This document shows, piece after piece, positions 1 to 26,397 of a DNA stretch of 29,364 bases. The stretch comes from an uncultured Desulfobulbaceae bacterium (GTDB lineage Bacteria > Desulfobacterota > Desulfobulbia > Desulfobulbales > Desulfobulbaceae): positions 1-29,364 of the forward strand of contig CAMYOP010000001.1 of the NCBI GenBank assembly GCA_947260045.1, written 5' to 3'. Under the pieces are notes generated by a model that worked only from the letters and a program-made list of their open reading frames with translations, was not told the DNA's origin and searched no databases. The translations under genes and the position numbers were made by a program. Numbering within the stretch: the stretch's first letter is position 1; the number at the start of each line of letters is the position of its first letter.

Positions 1-507
1 TACACGGCCGCCGGGACGAGCGGCGAAGACCGGGTAGGCGGCATTGGCCAAAACCGTGCCAGCGGTAACACAGCCAACTTTGTCGCCGGCAATGACGGGA
101 GTATGCGTTTTGACAATGGCAACATTCTCAGCACGGCGATTCCCACCGATGTATTTCTACGCTCGATGAGGTTGGATGCCGGAGCTGTTTCACAGTGGTA
201 CAACGGAGCGGTGGATTACTTGAATGACTCGACACCCAGTGGTGGCAGTATTCCGAATCCCACCTCGACGGACGATTTCTACATTGGGGATCTCCGTAGT
301 GTTACGCAGGACAGTAATACTCATCTAGTGGAGACGCTCGTCTACAACGCCGCGCTGAGCGATCTTCAAATCAACGGCGTCAACGAGTTTTTGCTAGCCA
401 ATGCACAAACGCAGCCATCTGCCGTTCCTGAGCCTTCCGGTTTCCTGCTAAGCACGCTGGGGGCCCTGGCCCTGGCATTGTTCTTATCCGGACGACGAGG
501 CTCGTAA
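1..507 (+). CDS. PEP-CTERM sorting-domain protein, 3' part only (frame open from base 1); probable LamG/concanavalin-like domain before the sorting signal
   Basis: Frame +1 has no stop from 1 to TAA at 505-507 (YTAAGTSGEDRVGGIGQNRASG...). It ends VPEPS + hydrophobic helix (GFLLSTLGALALALFLSG) + RR. The stretch FYIG...LVETLVYNAALSDLQINGVNEFL resembles the end of LamG-like domains. Hand-counted GC is about 56%. Confidence 0.85.
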   Translation, partial: YTAAGTSGEDRVGGIGQNRASGNTANFVAGNDGSMRFDNGNILSTAIPTDVFLRSMRLDAGAVSQWYNGAVDYLNDSTPSGGSIPNPTSTDDFYIGDLRSVTQDSNTHLVETLVYNAALSDLQINGVNEFLLANAQTQPSAVPEPSGFLLSTLGALALALFLSGRRGS

Positions 508-512
508 CTCTC

Positions 513-2267
513 TCTTTACTTTCCGTTCTTGATCTCACCGCCACCCCCATGGGTGCTCGATTACTCAAAAAACGTCTCCTTTTTCCCCTGCGTGATAAAA
601 ACCAAATCCAGGCACGCTTAAACTCTGTGGAATCCTTCCTGGCATTTCCTGGACAACGCAAAGATCTTCAGGATGCACTTGATCGAGTTTACGACCTGGA
701 AAGGCTTTGCAGTCGTGTAGTTTTAGGACTTGGCAATGCCAGAGACATGGCGGCCATGAAAGTTTCCCTGGGTCAACTACCTGCAATTAAAGATTTAATT
801 ACAGCATTCTCAACTCCTGATCTTTTGCAGGATATCAACGACAAGCTCGATACCCTTGACGATCTTTACCAGCTCATAAACGAGGCAATCCGTGATGATG
901 CTCCTGTTACCCTTCGCGAAGGAAATTTGATCTGTGAGGGATATAATAAGAAATTAGACGAGCTGACCACACTTGAACGAGATGGCAAACAATTGATCTT
1001 AGCACTTGAAGAAAAAGAAAAAGCAACAAGCAATATTGCAAAGCTCAAAGTCGGTTACAATAAAATTTTTGGTTATTATTTTGAAATCAGTCGGGCACAA
1101 GCCGCCTCTGTGCCCGACTATTTTATCAGAAAGCAGACCCTGGTAAATGCAGAGCGTTTCATCACTCCAGAACTTAAAGAACTTGAAACCAAAATATCTT
1201 CTGCCTGGGATGAGCGATTAAGCCTTGAATACGATTTGTTCATCGACATAAGAAACCGTATCAGTGCTCAGAGTACTCGTATACTTGACACAGCGCATCA
1301 AATAGCCCGTTTAGATTTTTTAGTGAGTCTGGCCGAAGCTGCCTCCAAGTATCATTACCTAAAACCAAAAATCACCCAGGATAATATCATAACAATCATT
1401 GAGGGAAGACATCCTGTCATTGAACAATCCCTTGAACCTGGTCGATTTGTGCCAAACGATGTTCACCTGAACCAGCAGGACCATGAACTACTCATTATCA
1501 CAGGTCCCAACATGGCTGGAAAATCAACTGTTCTTCGGCAAACAGCGCTTATAGTTCTCATGGCCCATATTGGTAGTTTCGTCCCTGTTGAATCAGCTGA
1601 TATATGCCTGGTGGATAGAATCTTCACCCGTGTCGGTGCCATGGATGATTTGCGCAGAGGACAATCCACATTCATGGTTGAAATGAATGAAACAGCCAAT
1701 ATACTCAATAATGCAACTGAAAATAGCCTGGTAATCTTAGATGAAATTGGCCGCGGAACTTCAACCTATGATGGGCTTTCTATTGCCTGGGCAGTTGCTG
1801 AAAACCTGGTTGAAAAAAATGACAAAGGAGTCAAAACTCTTTTTGCAACGCATTACCATGAGCTGACTGATCTTGCCTTAACCCATAACAGAATTAAAAA
1901 TTATTCCATTGCCGTTCGTGAATGGAACGACAGTATCATTTTTCTTCATAAGCTTATTAAAGGTGCGACCAACCGAAGCTATGGAATTCAAGTAGCAGGA
2001 CTGGCTGGAGTTCCTGACATAGTAATACAAAGGGCCCATGAAATTCTTCGCAATATCGAAAACAAAGAATATAATCAAGACGGGCGACCAAATCTCGCTG
2101 TTTCCAAAAAGAATACTGAAAAAACAAATACCCCCCATCAAATACCTCTATTTCCACCAAAGGAAGACCCACTCAGAAAGCTCTTGGAAACCTACAAACC
2201 TGAAGAAACAACTCCTCTTGATGCCCTCCAAATTTTATATAAGGCTCATGAGCTTTTGAAACAGTGA
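513..2267 (+). CDS. mutS: DNA mismatch repair protein MutS, 5'-truncated (about 584 aa of core, clamp and ATPase domains; mismatch-binding and connector domains missing)
   Basis: MutS-like sequence starts upstream of the ORF-track Met at 549: SLLSVLDLTATPMGARLLKKRLLFPL from 513. It carries Walker A TGPNMAGKST, RIFTRVGAMDDLRRGQSTFMVEM, LDEIGRGTSTYDG and FATHYHEL. Upstream in this frame the residues are non-MutS, with TGA at 429-431. Confidence 0.93.
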   Translation, partial: SLLSVLDLTATPMGARLLKKRLLFPLRDKNQIQARLNSVESFLAFPGQRKDLQDALDRVYDLERLCSRVVLGLGNARDMAAMKVSLGQLPAIKDLITAFSTPDLLQDINDKLDTLDDLYQLINEAIRDDAPVTLREGNLICEGYNKKLDELTTLERDGKQLILALEEKEKATSNIAKLKVGYNKIFGYYFEISRAQAASVPDYFIRKQTLVNAERFITPELKELETKISSAWDERLSLEYDLFIDIRNRISAQSTRILDTAHQIARLDFLVSLAEAASKYHYLKPKITQDNIITIIEGRHPVIEQSLEPGRFVPNDVHLNQQDHELLIITGPNMAGKSTVLRQTALIVLMAHIGSFVPVESADICLVDRIFTRVGAMDDLRRGQSTFMVEMNETANILNNATENSLVILDEIGRGTSTYDGLSIAWAVAENLVEKNDKGVKTLFATHYHELTDLALTHNRIKNYSIAVREWNDSIIFLHKLIKGATNRSYGIQVAGLAGVPDIVIQRAHEILRNIENKEYNQDGRPNLAVSKKNTEKTNTPHQIPLFPPKEDPLRKLLETYKPEETTPLDALQILYKAHELLKQ

Positions 2268-2440: not shown

Positions 2441-4375
2441 ATGCTACTTTTCTTCAAATATTTTAAATGCTTGCCCGCACGCCTGCATATGCTGAGTAGA
2501 TACCTGCTGTTTTTTCTCTTTCTCCTGGCACCATTTAGCTCCCATGGCGCAGATCAGTCAACTAACAAAGAAAATAGTGATTCTTCTGTTTATGCTGACC
2601 AGTATAAAGTTGCAAAAAATTATTATTATAAACTTGAACGGGAACCAGAACTGGGTGGTGATCGTAAAAAGTGGTTAAACGGAGTTCGAAACTTTCGGAA
2701 AATCTATCTCCTTGACCCCAAAAGCGAGATTGCCCCCTCCTGTCTTTTCATGATGGGTAAGCTTCACCAGAGAATGAAAGAGCGCTTTCAGCAAGTGATA
2801 GATGGCGAGGAGGCTATTAACTATTACAAAGATGTGGCACGGTTATTCCCTAAAAGTAACCTGGCTGATGATGCGCTGTTGAAAACAGCTGAAATGTACC
2901 TTTACACAGAAAAGAATCACAAAAAGGCTGCAACTACCCTTGAGAAAATCATCAATCTCTACCCTGAGGGAGACAAGCATACCGAGGCGGTTAATCGACT
3001 TAACGACCTACTACAGAAACACGAAGATATAACTACTGGCAAGAACTCTGCAAACAAAGCTGTTCCACGCAATCTCGTGAACGTTCTTCCTGTAAAATAC
3101 TGGTCATCTGACGAGTATACACGCATCGTCATTCGTGCATCCCAACCCGTAGGTTATACGCCTCATCTTCTCGAAAAAAATTCCGATCTCCCCAGAAGAC
3201 TCTATATTGATTTTGATCAGAGCTATATTCCCCCTAAATTCAGATCTCCCATTCCAATACAGGATGGCCTCTTAAAACAGGTTCGAACTGGCCAGTTTAA
3301 CCCCACCACGGTAAGAGTGGTGCTCGATATTGAAACCATTTCTGATTATAAAGTTTTCAACCTCAATGATCCCTTTCGGGTTGTTGTAGATGTTCATGGT
3401 CAAAACAAAAATTCAGCGCACAAAACTGTCAAAAAACAGGTAGCAGCACAACCCAAAAAAAGACCAATAAGCAAAACAGGTAAAGTTCAAAAAGCTCTCC
3501 AGCCTGCTCCTGAGAAGACTGTTGCGTCTACGGCCACACCTCCTAAGCCGACACAGGCAGAACTTAAACCAGTTGAAAAGAAAGATATTATTGTAAATCT
3601 TAAGGATATAAAAAAAATAAAACCTGAGGCTCAGTTAAATACTGATCAACAGGACAATATGAACTTATCCCTTGCTCAGCAACTCGGGCTTGGTGTCAAA
3701 AAAATAGTGATTGATCCTGGACATGGAGGCAAAGACCCAGGTGCAATGGCCTTTGGTCTGAAGGAAAAAAATATTGTGTTGTCGGTTGCCCAAAACGCTG
3801 CAGAGACCCTGCGAAATCAATACGGGTATGAAGTAGTTCTGACCAGAACCCGTGACACCTACCTGCCTCTTGAGGAACGTACTGCTATTGCCAATACAGA
3901 AAAGGCTGACCTCTTTGTCTCAATACATGTCAATGCCCATCCTTCCAAGTCAGTTAAAGGGATTGAAACATTCTATCTCAATTTAGCCACCAACGCTGAA
4001 GCCATGCGTGTAGCCGCCCTTGAAAATGCGACATCAACCCATAATATCAGTGATTTGCAAGATATTTTATCAGACCTGATGCAAAACTCTAAAATTGAGG
4101 AATCTTCCAGGCTTGCAGAGTATGTGCATGGAAGTATTGTCAGTGGTCTTGAAGGGACGTATAAGGTGAAAAATCTTGGTGTAAAGCAGGCTCCTTTTTA
4201 TGTATTGATAGGTGCCCAGATGCCTGCCGTGCTTGCTGAAATATCTTTTATAACAAATCCTAGAGAATCAGAACTGCTCCGTAAACCTGAATACCTCAAT
4301 AAAGTCGGTGAACAGATTGCCGATGGTATCAGGGGATATGTCGAGCACCATACTACTGCTGCAATCAAGCGCTAA
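2441..4375 (+). CDS. N-acetylmuramoyl-L-alanine amidase (Amidase_3) with N-terminal TPR-like repeats and an AMIN domain; secreted
   Basis: Signal-like N-terminus (LLFFLFLLAPFSSHGA). TPR-like helices (EAINYYKDVARLFPKSNLADDALLKTAEMY). AMIN-like segment (TRIVIRAS...RRLYIDF...VRTGQFNPTTVRVVLD...PFRVVVDV). Lys/Pro-rich linker. Zn-amidase motifs IDPGHGGKDPGA, E(KNIVL), SIHVNA, AVLAE. The true start may be the second Met (MLSRY). Confidence 0.9.
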   Translation: MLLFFKYFKCLPARLHMLSRYLLFFLFLLAPFSSHGADQSTNKENSDSSVYADQYKVAKNYYYKLEREPELGGDRKKWLNGVRNFRKIYLLDPKSEIAPSCLFMMGKLHQRMKERFQQVIDGEEAINYYKDVARLFPKSNLADDALLKTAEMYLYTEKNHKKAATTLEKIINLYPEGDKHTEAVNRLNDLLQKHEDITTGKNSANKAVPRNLVNVLPVKYWSSDEYTRIVIRASQPVGYTPHLLEKNSDLPRRLYIDFDQSYIPPKFRSPIPIQDGLLKQVRTGQFNPTTVRVVLDIETISDYKVFNLNDPFRVVVDVHGQNKNSAHKTVKKQVAAQPKKRPISKTGKVQKALQPAPEKTVASTATPPKPTQAELKPVEKKDIIVNLKDIKKIKPEAQLNTDQQDNMNLSLAQQLGLGVKKIVIDPGHGGKDPGAMAFGLKEKNIVLSVAQNAAETLRNQYGYEVVLTRTRDTYLPLEERTAIANTEKADLFVSIHVNAHPSKSVKGIETFYLNLATNAEAMRVAALENATSTHNISDLQDILSDLMQNSKIEESSRLAEYVHGSIVSGLEGTYKVKNLGVKQAPFYVLIGAQMPAVLAEISFITNPRESELLRKPEYLNKVGEQIADGIRGYVEHHTTAAIKR

Positions 4376-23807: not shown

Positions 23808-26397
<2,590 letters not shown>

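Follow-up and report, generated by a model that had tools for sequence, protein, structure and literature searches.

Gene content at the 5' end of contig C1

The window, i.e. the whole stretch of DNA that was analyzed, is the entire contig C1 (29,364 bases) of a metagenome-assembled genome (MAG, G000) of an uncultured Desulfobulbaceae bacterium. The feature under consideration lies at its extreme 5' end, where a tip of 507 bases coding for the end of a PEP-CTERM-type secreted protein directly abuts a copy of the mismatch-repair gene mutS that lacks its 5' part (Table 1). As argued below, this tip is very probably an inter-genome chimeric contig end, i.e. a misassembly, which most likely stems from a Planctomycetota-type bacterium.

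In the tip, reading frame 1 runs without interruption from the first base to its TAA stop (505-507) and specifies 168 residues with the C-terminal end AVPEPSGFLLSTLGALALALFLSGRRGS, while the 5' part of the gene, amounting to approximately 130 codons, lies beyond the contig end. Its sorting signal was detected with the Pfam profile PF07589 at 17-19.6 bits, i.e. below the cut-off of 20.7 bits. The PEP-CTERM label given in the first-pass annotation, which was made from the sequence alone, is thus upheld by the motif and by homologs that bear this name at NCBI, some of them scoring above the Pfam cut-off, but not by the Pfam score of the fragment itself. The accompanying description as 'LamG-like' is not borne out for the fragment itself: no Pfam hit to Laminin_G_3 (PF13385) was obtained on the fragment at E <= 0.1, the Atlas similarity of 0.88 is at the level of a lead only, and in the homolog P0001 the PF13385 match (340-515) falls outside the stretch (136-266) that best matches the tip fragment.

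Beyond the tip, SLLSVLDLTATPMGARLL can be read in frame 3 from 513 onwards, a TGA at 429-431 being the stop that closes this frame on its upstream side. Pfam searches with this open reading frame (ORF) recovered MutS_III (from profile position 19), MutS_IV and MutS_V, and neither MutS_I (PF01624) nor MutS_II (PF05188). The same ORF is an equivalog match to TIGR01070 (mutS1), with 686.3 bits against a cut-off of 641.7, across model positions 272-838 of 840. From this start at position 272 and from full-length homologs of approximately 890 residues, as against 584 in C1, approximately 270-306 N-terminal residues are missing, in agreement with the earlier estimate of roughly 290-300. Our comparison set comprised 20 relatives from the same family or order, of which five were used for synteny and nine for the MutS alignment. 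Against the mutS products of 19 of these 20, the retained part shows 60-72% identity, and in these 19 the mutS frames specify approximately 880-970 residues, barring copies that are split or cut by contig ends. Its closest named homologs are Desulfobulbaceae or Thermodesulfobacteriota MutS proteins of approximately 890 residues. As it has no internal stops, the mutS remnant is free of decay.

One could read this arrangement as a natural, N-terminally truncated MutS-family ATPase of domains III-V, which is translated from the ATG at 549 and is preceded by a native PEP-CTERM gene. An uninterrupted ORF of 572 residues does indeed run from this ATG, and MutS-family proteins without domain I do exist, with MutS2 and KamC-type ATPases appearing as weaker NCBIfam hits. 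Nevertheless, we consider this very improbable, for the protein is an ortholog of full-length MutS1, whose identity sets in at the first codon past the join and whose score lies above the TIGR01070 cut-off. Moreover, the MutS homology already sets in ahead of ATG 549, midway through domain III. This ATG is preceded neither by a promoter-like site nor by any visible purine-rich stretch of the Shine-Dalgarno type, and the gene upstream of it has a foreign composition and no counterpart in the relatives. Finally, a separate MutS2-like gene is present on contig C90.

Table 1. Features at the 5' end of C1 and further high-GC contig tips of the MAG
Feature	Contig	Coordinates or end	Strand	Description
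Foreign tip	C1	1..507	+	Last 168 codons and TAA stop of a PEP-CTERM-type secreted protein gene
PEP-CTERM-like sorting signal	C1	421..498	+	VPEP, hydrophobic helix, then GRRGS; motif VPEP...LALALFLSGRRGS
Interval that must hold the join	C1	499..512	.	Foreign homology to at least base 498; MutS homology from 510-513
Native 3' two-thirds of mutS	C1	510..2267	+	Domains III, IV, V and C-terminal region; no internal stops; without start
572-residue ORF from the first in-frame ATG	C1	549..2267	+	Truncated 'MutS' in the public protein collection; singleton cluster, source NCBI, from a single 29,364-base contig
Native downstream neighbour	C1	2441..4375	+	644-residue ORF, part of the conserved mutS neighbourhood
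Further high-GC tip (L013)	C300	3' end		GC within 0.55-0.63
Further high-GC tip (L017)	C334	5' end		GC within 0.55-0.63
Further high-GC tip (L020)	C40	5' end		GC within 0.55-0.63
Further high-GC tip (L012)	C39	3' end		GC within 0.55-0.63
Further high-GC tip (L014)	C243	3' end		GC within 0.55-0.63
Further high-GC tip (L015)	C75	5' end		GC within 0.55-0.63
Further high-GC tip (L016)	C155	5' end		GC within 0.55-0.63

Composition and affinities of the terminal 507 bases

The tip differs strongly in composition from what follows it. Its guanine plus cytosine (GC) content is 0.558, as against 0.393 in 961-1260, which bears out the hand-counted fall from about 56% to about 39% in the first-pass annotation; at third codon positions (GC3) the values are 0.619 for the left ORF and 0.363 for mutS. 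The GC changepoint of C1 lies near 500-560. Under a third-order Markov model of the genome, applied to 30,157 windows of 400 bases, positions 1-400 score -1.437 against a mean of -1.346 (standard deviation 0.0166; z of approximately -5.5). They thereby rank with the handful of most atypical windows of the MAG, and the step is far beyond chance. Within C1 the atypical composition is confined to the tip, with positions 508-29364 having a GC content of 0.431 as against 0.423 for the genome.

This distribution bears directly on whether the whole contig, or its mutS side, might be a contaminant introduced by a binning error, which was among the artefacts contemplated at the outset. The MAG does have an estimated contamination of 3.9%. 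However, a binning artefact is ruled against by the fact that 98% of the contig is native: its GC content beyond the tip is that of the genome, both sides of mutS are syntenic with family-level relatives (see below) and only the 507-base tip is atypical. Further, the fault sits inside one contig, which binning cannot create. A contaminant origin is hence scarcely credible; what we are dealing with is an assembly- or read-level chimera inside a single contig, not a product of binning.

Sequence searches with the tip point away from the Desulfobulbaceae. The tip sequence occurs only once within the MAG, and none of the 20 relatives yielded a match to its protein. A scan of the genomes of 185,579 species with the tip fragment recovered only two hits, one in a Planctomicrobium MAG and the other in a MAG of the Pirellulaceae, both at 35-36% identity. 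An exhaustive profile search yielded 56 relatives of the fragment with a best identity of 55%, many of them approximately 300 residues long and with the same C-terminal signal. Alignments with the homologs run to residue 166 of the 168 of the tip protein, which corresponds to base 498. The named homologs at NCBI are annotated as 'PEP-CTERM sorting domain-containing protein [Planctomycetota bacterium]', and the closest Atlas clusters come from Verrucomicrobiota and Planctomycetota, the latter evidence being a lead only. A scan of metagenome contigs with the PEP-CTERM fragment found no relatives. The two halves of the junction thus hit unrelated phyla, with the left one going to Planctomycetota or the Planctomycetes-Verrucomicrobia-Chlamydiae (PVC) group and the right one to Desulfobulbaceae. 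The Planctomycetota/Verrucomicrobiota-like donor, which had been offered as a guess, finds support in these hits.

A PEP-CTERM system is truly present in this Desulfobulbaceae-like genome. The search for an exosortase that had been proposed in the first-pass annotation uncovered a native fragment of the EpsH type at a contig end of the MAG (C166:2-268). The MAG further has at least seven native PEP-CTERM tails, among them those on contigs C167, C47, C80, C142, C271 and C48. These native tails show a uniform VPEPxTxLLFGxGLAGL...RKKK pattern, a GC content of 0.41-0.47 and PF07589 scores of 28-36 bits, whereas the C1 tail has 56% GC, another style of motif and a score of 19.6 bits.

The join and the native mutS locus

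When the frame-3 translation was aligned with the MutS proteins of nine relatives, identity began with the codon at 510-512 (Leu, in seven of the nine), followed by the one at 513 (Ser, in all nine), with nothing beyond chance upstream of 510. The join therefore falls within the short interval given in Table 1 and cuts mutS inside domain III. Translation and alignment sustain the initial description of this region, namely a PEP-CTERM frame ending at 505-507, MutS sequence from 513 onwards in mid-protein and closure of its frame at 429-431. The tip gene stops 2-5 bases from the join without a 3' flank, and its stop at 507 is not followed by a terminator-like site. A search for direct or inverted repeats at the join came back empty and no adapter sequence was found there. 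Likewise, no target duplication or mobile-element features were seen in a check of boundaries that covered the 507 foreign bases, where the PEP-CTERM gene is the sole visible foreign gene. With no start signal at ATG 549 either, the earlier statement that the join lacks a ribosome-binding site, an intergenic region and any repeat proved accurate.

Gene order in the relatives allows the native surroundings of mutS to be reconstructed. In tblastn searches the 644-residue ORF that follows mutS is 49-60% identical to the gene occupying the same position in four of the five relatives, and, also in four of five, the downstream genes as a whole fall on C1 in conserved order. On the upstream side, the neighbours of mutS in the five relatives map to contig C236 (4457 bases) and the more distant ones to the end of C10. 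The one adjoining mutS, a 170-residue open frame in the relative G012, matches C236:4227-4457, with the 3' end of C236 cutting it at approximately residue 80 of 170. Because the neighbours of mutS in the relatives map to these contigs, the native order would be C10, C236, a gap and then C1 from approximately position 510.

The predicted gap between C236 and C1:510 measures approximately 1.6 kb, comprising the rest of the upstream gene, the intergenic region and approximately 0.9 kb of mutS. The MAG consists of 376 contigs totalling 3.15 Mb (median 6.7 kb) with 42 N-runs of variable length, and its shortest contig has 2007 bases. The gap piece is below this minimum, and therefore the 5' half of mutS would be discarded by size. 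The first-pass annotation had advised looking for this half elsewhere; neither MutS_I (PF01624) nor the N-terminal part of mutS was found in the MAG, either by profile search or by tblastn with the N-terminal regions of the relatives. The size cut-off accounts for this outcome with no need for biology, and the absence says little given that the MAG is 78% complete (78.3%) and the gap falls below the contig cut-off. Beyond the MAG, a scan of metagenome contigs with the MutS part gave a best match of only 64% amino-acid identity and no contig of the same species with the native 5' half. Exact-protein look-ups with the product of ORF 2441-4375 and with the 572-residue MutS, aimed at independent assemblies of the species, returned nothing on record.

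Recurrence of atypical tips at contig ends

The C1 tip is one of a series in this assembly. Among 500-base windows with a GC content of at least 0.54, terminal positions are strongly over-represented (10/752 terminal as against 27/29,029 interior windows; odds ratio 14.5, p = 2e-8). The same tendency is seen among the 91 most atypical 400-base windows of the Markov scan, 13 of which are terminal (odds ratio 6.6). All but one of the ten most extreme segments touch a contig end, namely those of C1, C23, C32, C39, C75, C121, C155, C300 and C334. The composition steps are sharp and lie approximately 340-1050 bases from the contig ends. We rejected rRNA or tRNA as the cause of the high-GC contig ends, since searches there returned no hits to rRNA, tRNA or any other Rfam family. 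The sole interior segment of the ten most atypical ones is C18:14501-15200, with a Markov score of -1.426 and a GC content of approximately 0.5.

Several of these tips likewise show genes cut in mid-domain exactly at the composition step, three of them being genes of foreign type. On C300 a Creatinase_N domain breaks off after profile position 86 (1-86 of 128) and borders on a native DsrE gene; on C334 a DAO domain ends at profile position 85 of 353 (1-85); and on C40 an MFS_1 domain covers profile positions 2-173 of 347.

The most telling case is that of C23, where positions 2-1102 (L018) form an in-frame chimeric ORF of 367 residues, which combines native Tat-signal/4Fe-4S residues 1-155 with a fragment of a foreign transglycosylase, whose Transgly domain starts at profile position 34 of 178. 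The native half is 71-75% identical to orthologs of 305-321 residues in two relatives, and this homology stops at C23:638 (PEDKNFY), which coincides with the GC changepoint. What the native gene lacks on C23, its C-terminal half (ortholog residues 169-305), is found at C294:2-412, starting from base 2 and with 90% identity. The native ends of C23 and C294 are thus only approximately 14 codons apart, and therefore the 637-base high-GC tip of C23 is not its genomic continuation. The transglycosylase of this tip is no more than 43-50% identical to those of relatives and 45% identical to the MAG's own copy on C192. In one of the orthologs of the Tat-signal/4Fe-4S gene (G005:C57:6632-7054, L123) we observed a single in-frame TGA within the match, for which sequencing error, gene splitting and codon recoding are possible explanations.

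In the Atlas the tips of C23 and C40 lean to Pseudomonadota, although these are weak leads. The tips hence seem to come from several community members rather than from one donor. For three other contigs the continuation test was uninformative: msrBA of C75 has no true ortholog in the relatives, the neighbourhood of the C300 DsrE gene in G005 gave no further matches in the MAG, and the native ORF of C39 has no orthologs in the 20 relatives. Separately, steps to low GC (0.30-0.35 as against 0.43-0.49) were seen near the 5' end of C177, the 3' end of C40, the 5' end of C98 and the 3' end of C227; these may represent native AT-rich DNA or tips derived from low-GC organisms.

Chimeric contig end versus genuine insertion

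The principal biological alternative, also entertained in the first-pass annotation, is a real insertion or illegitimate recombination, by which Planctomycetota-derived DNA carrying a PEP-CTERM surface-protein gene split mutS and inactivated mismatch repair, giving rise to a mutator lineage or sub-population; the contig would then simply stop 0.5 kb into the insert. If true, this would amount to a natural mutator genotype in an uncultured relative of sulfate reducers, which would be of moderate interest. The junction is, after all, present in the deposited sequence, and neither the N-terminal part of mutS nor MutS_I occurs anywhere in the MAG. Foreign islands often cause contig breaks, and the organism's own PEP-CTERM/exosortase system could in principle use such a protein.

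Yet several lines of evidence render such an event unlikely. At the join itself there are no repeats, target duplication or mobile-element features of the kind left by insertions, and the foreign gene ends within a few bases of it with neither flank nor terminator. The composition of the foreign DNA is wholly unameliorated, and its sorting signal is of a style unlike that of the native ones, while the mutS remnant has undergone no decay. The missing 5' half means little for the reasons given above, and the upstream flank of mutS is intact on C236. Most importantly, the same pattern is seen at several other contig ends, apparently with other donor taxa and with other genes cut. In the case of C23 the native continuation lies on C294, and a single genome would hardly be expected to contain so many foreign joins in mid-gene, all of them within approximately 1 kb of contig ends.

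The other possibility named at the outset, a chimeric join of two genomes, is favoured instead by the composition, the taxonomy, the synteny with C236, the recurrent tips and the pair C23/C294. While the observation itself is confirmed, the feature is very probably not biological. Under this chimeric-end interpretation, DNA of another community member would have been joined, at library construction or during assembly, to a Desulfobulbaceae contig starting inside mutS at approximately base 510. The assembler may have followed a chimeric read or fragment, or a short k-mer shared by chance at low coverage, as might happen with a multi-k assembler or a scaffolder, and its path into the foreign genome would have ended after approximately 0.5 kb. 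The organism's mutS would then be intact, with its 5' 0.9 kb either on a piece below the 2-kb cut-off or never assembled.

Certain points weigh against a chimeric end. For C1 itself the artefact is inferred from the sequence rather than demonstrated. With its own exosortase fragment and PEP-CTERM proteins, the MAG is not one in which a PEP-CTERM protein would per se be out of place. The visibly shared bases at the join number at most approximately 14, and a k-mer-mediated graph error cannot be confirmed from them. Both the donor sequence and the native mutS 5' half of the species were found in none of the collections searched. Finally, real strain-variable islands also tend toward contig ends.

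A damaged alaS gene and consequences for the use of the assembly

A further defect is present elsewhere in C1. The alaS gene (window positions 25979-26388, minus strand) is split into pieces of 121 and 723 residues, the former matching tRNA-synt_2c profile positions 1-118 and the latter positions 159-549 followed by tRNA_SAD and DHHA1. Approximately 40 tRNA-synt_2c positions (119-158) are missing, and the frame changes between 26026 and 25979, within approximately 45 bases. Because the gene is essential, we read this defect as an assembly error; it is probably a local one, likely a deletion.

In practical terms, bases 1 to approximately 509 of C1 should be trimmed, and the 572-residue 'MutS' should be regarded as a contig-end partial gene. 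Together with the partial PEP-CTERM protein, this public 'MutS' entry could be misread as a loss of mismatch repair or a cross-phylum transfer, and the tip could equally be misread as evidence for Planctomycetota-type surface proteins in Desulfobulbaceae. The MAG as a whole has approximately ten such tips, at least one in-frame fusion ORF (that of C23) and a damaged alaS. Therefore, inferences on gene presence, pseudogenes and horizontal gene transfer should exclude the terminal 1 kb or so of its contigs.

Comparison with known systems

Natural mutators with a disrupted or deleted mutS are known among enterobacterial and Pseudomonas isolates. As in these, a mutS product without the mismatch-binding domain, such as the one that C1 would encode, would abolish mismatch repair. 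The difference is that the disruption in C1 is known from an assembly only, and the evidence favours an artefact over a cellular event.

On the donor side, the closest counterparts of the tip are Planctomycetota PEP-CTERM proteins of approximately 300 residues (the P0005/P0058 cluster), with which the fragment aligns at 43-55% identity up to and including the C-terminal motif, the helix and the Arg cluster. The 550-residue homolog P0001 combines Laminin_G_3 with PEP-CTERM, whereas the tip represents a C-terminal half only, with a sub-threshold PEP-CTERM signal and without a Laminin_G_3 hit.

Inter-genome translocations are reported to be the commonest misassembly type in CAMI metagenome benchmarks (PMC9661791). 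Tools for chimeric contigs of this type in short-read metagenome assemblies and MAGs, as benchmarked by metaMIC (PMC9661791), work from coverage, pair consistency and clipped reads, whereas the case of C1 is known from sequence. In C1, moreover, no more than the 507 bases of the contig tip are foreign. What C1 shares with such chimeric contigs is the presence of two unrelated genomes in one contig, an abrupt switch in both composition and taxonomy, genes cut at the breakpoint and recurrence within one assembly.

On the native side, the reference is the full-length MutS1 of Desulfobulbaceae and Thermodesulfobacteriota (TIGR01070; PF01624, PF05188, PF05192, PF05190 and PF00488). Relative to it, C1 lacks the mismatch-binding domain I, the connector domain II, the first 18 positions of domain III and the start codon context. 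In the remainder, positions 510-2267 of C1 encode the ortholog, up to 73% identical, which has domains III-V like MutS1 and is followed by genes in the order seen downstream of the full-length mutS.

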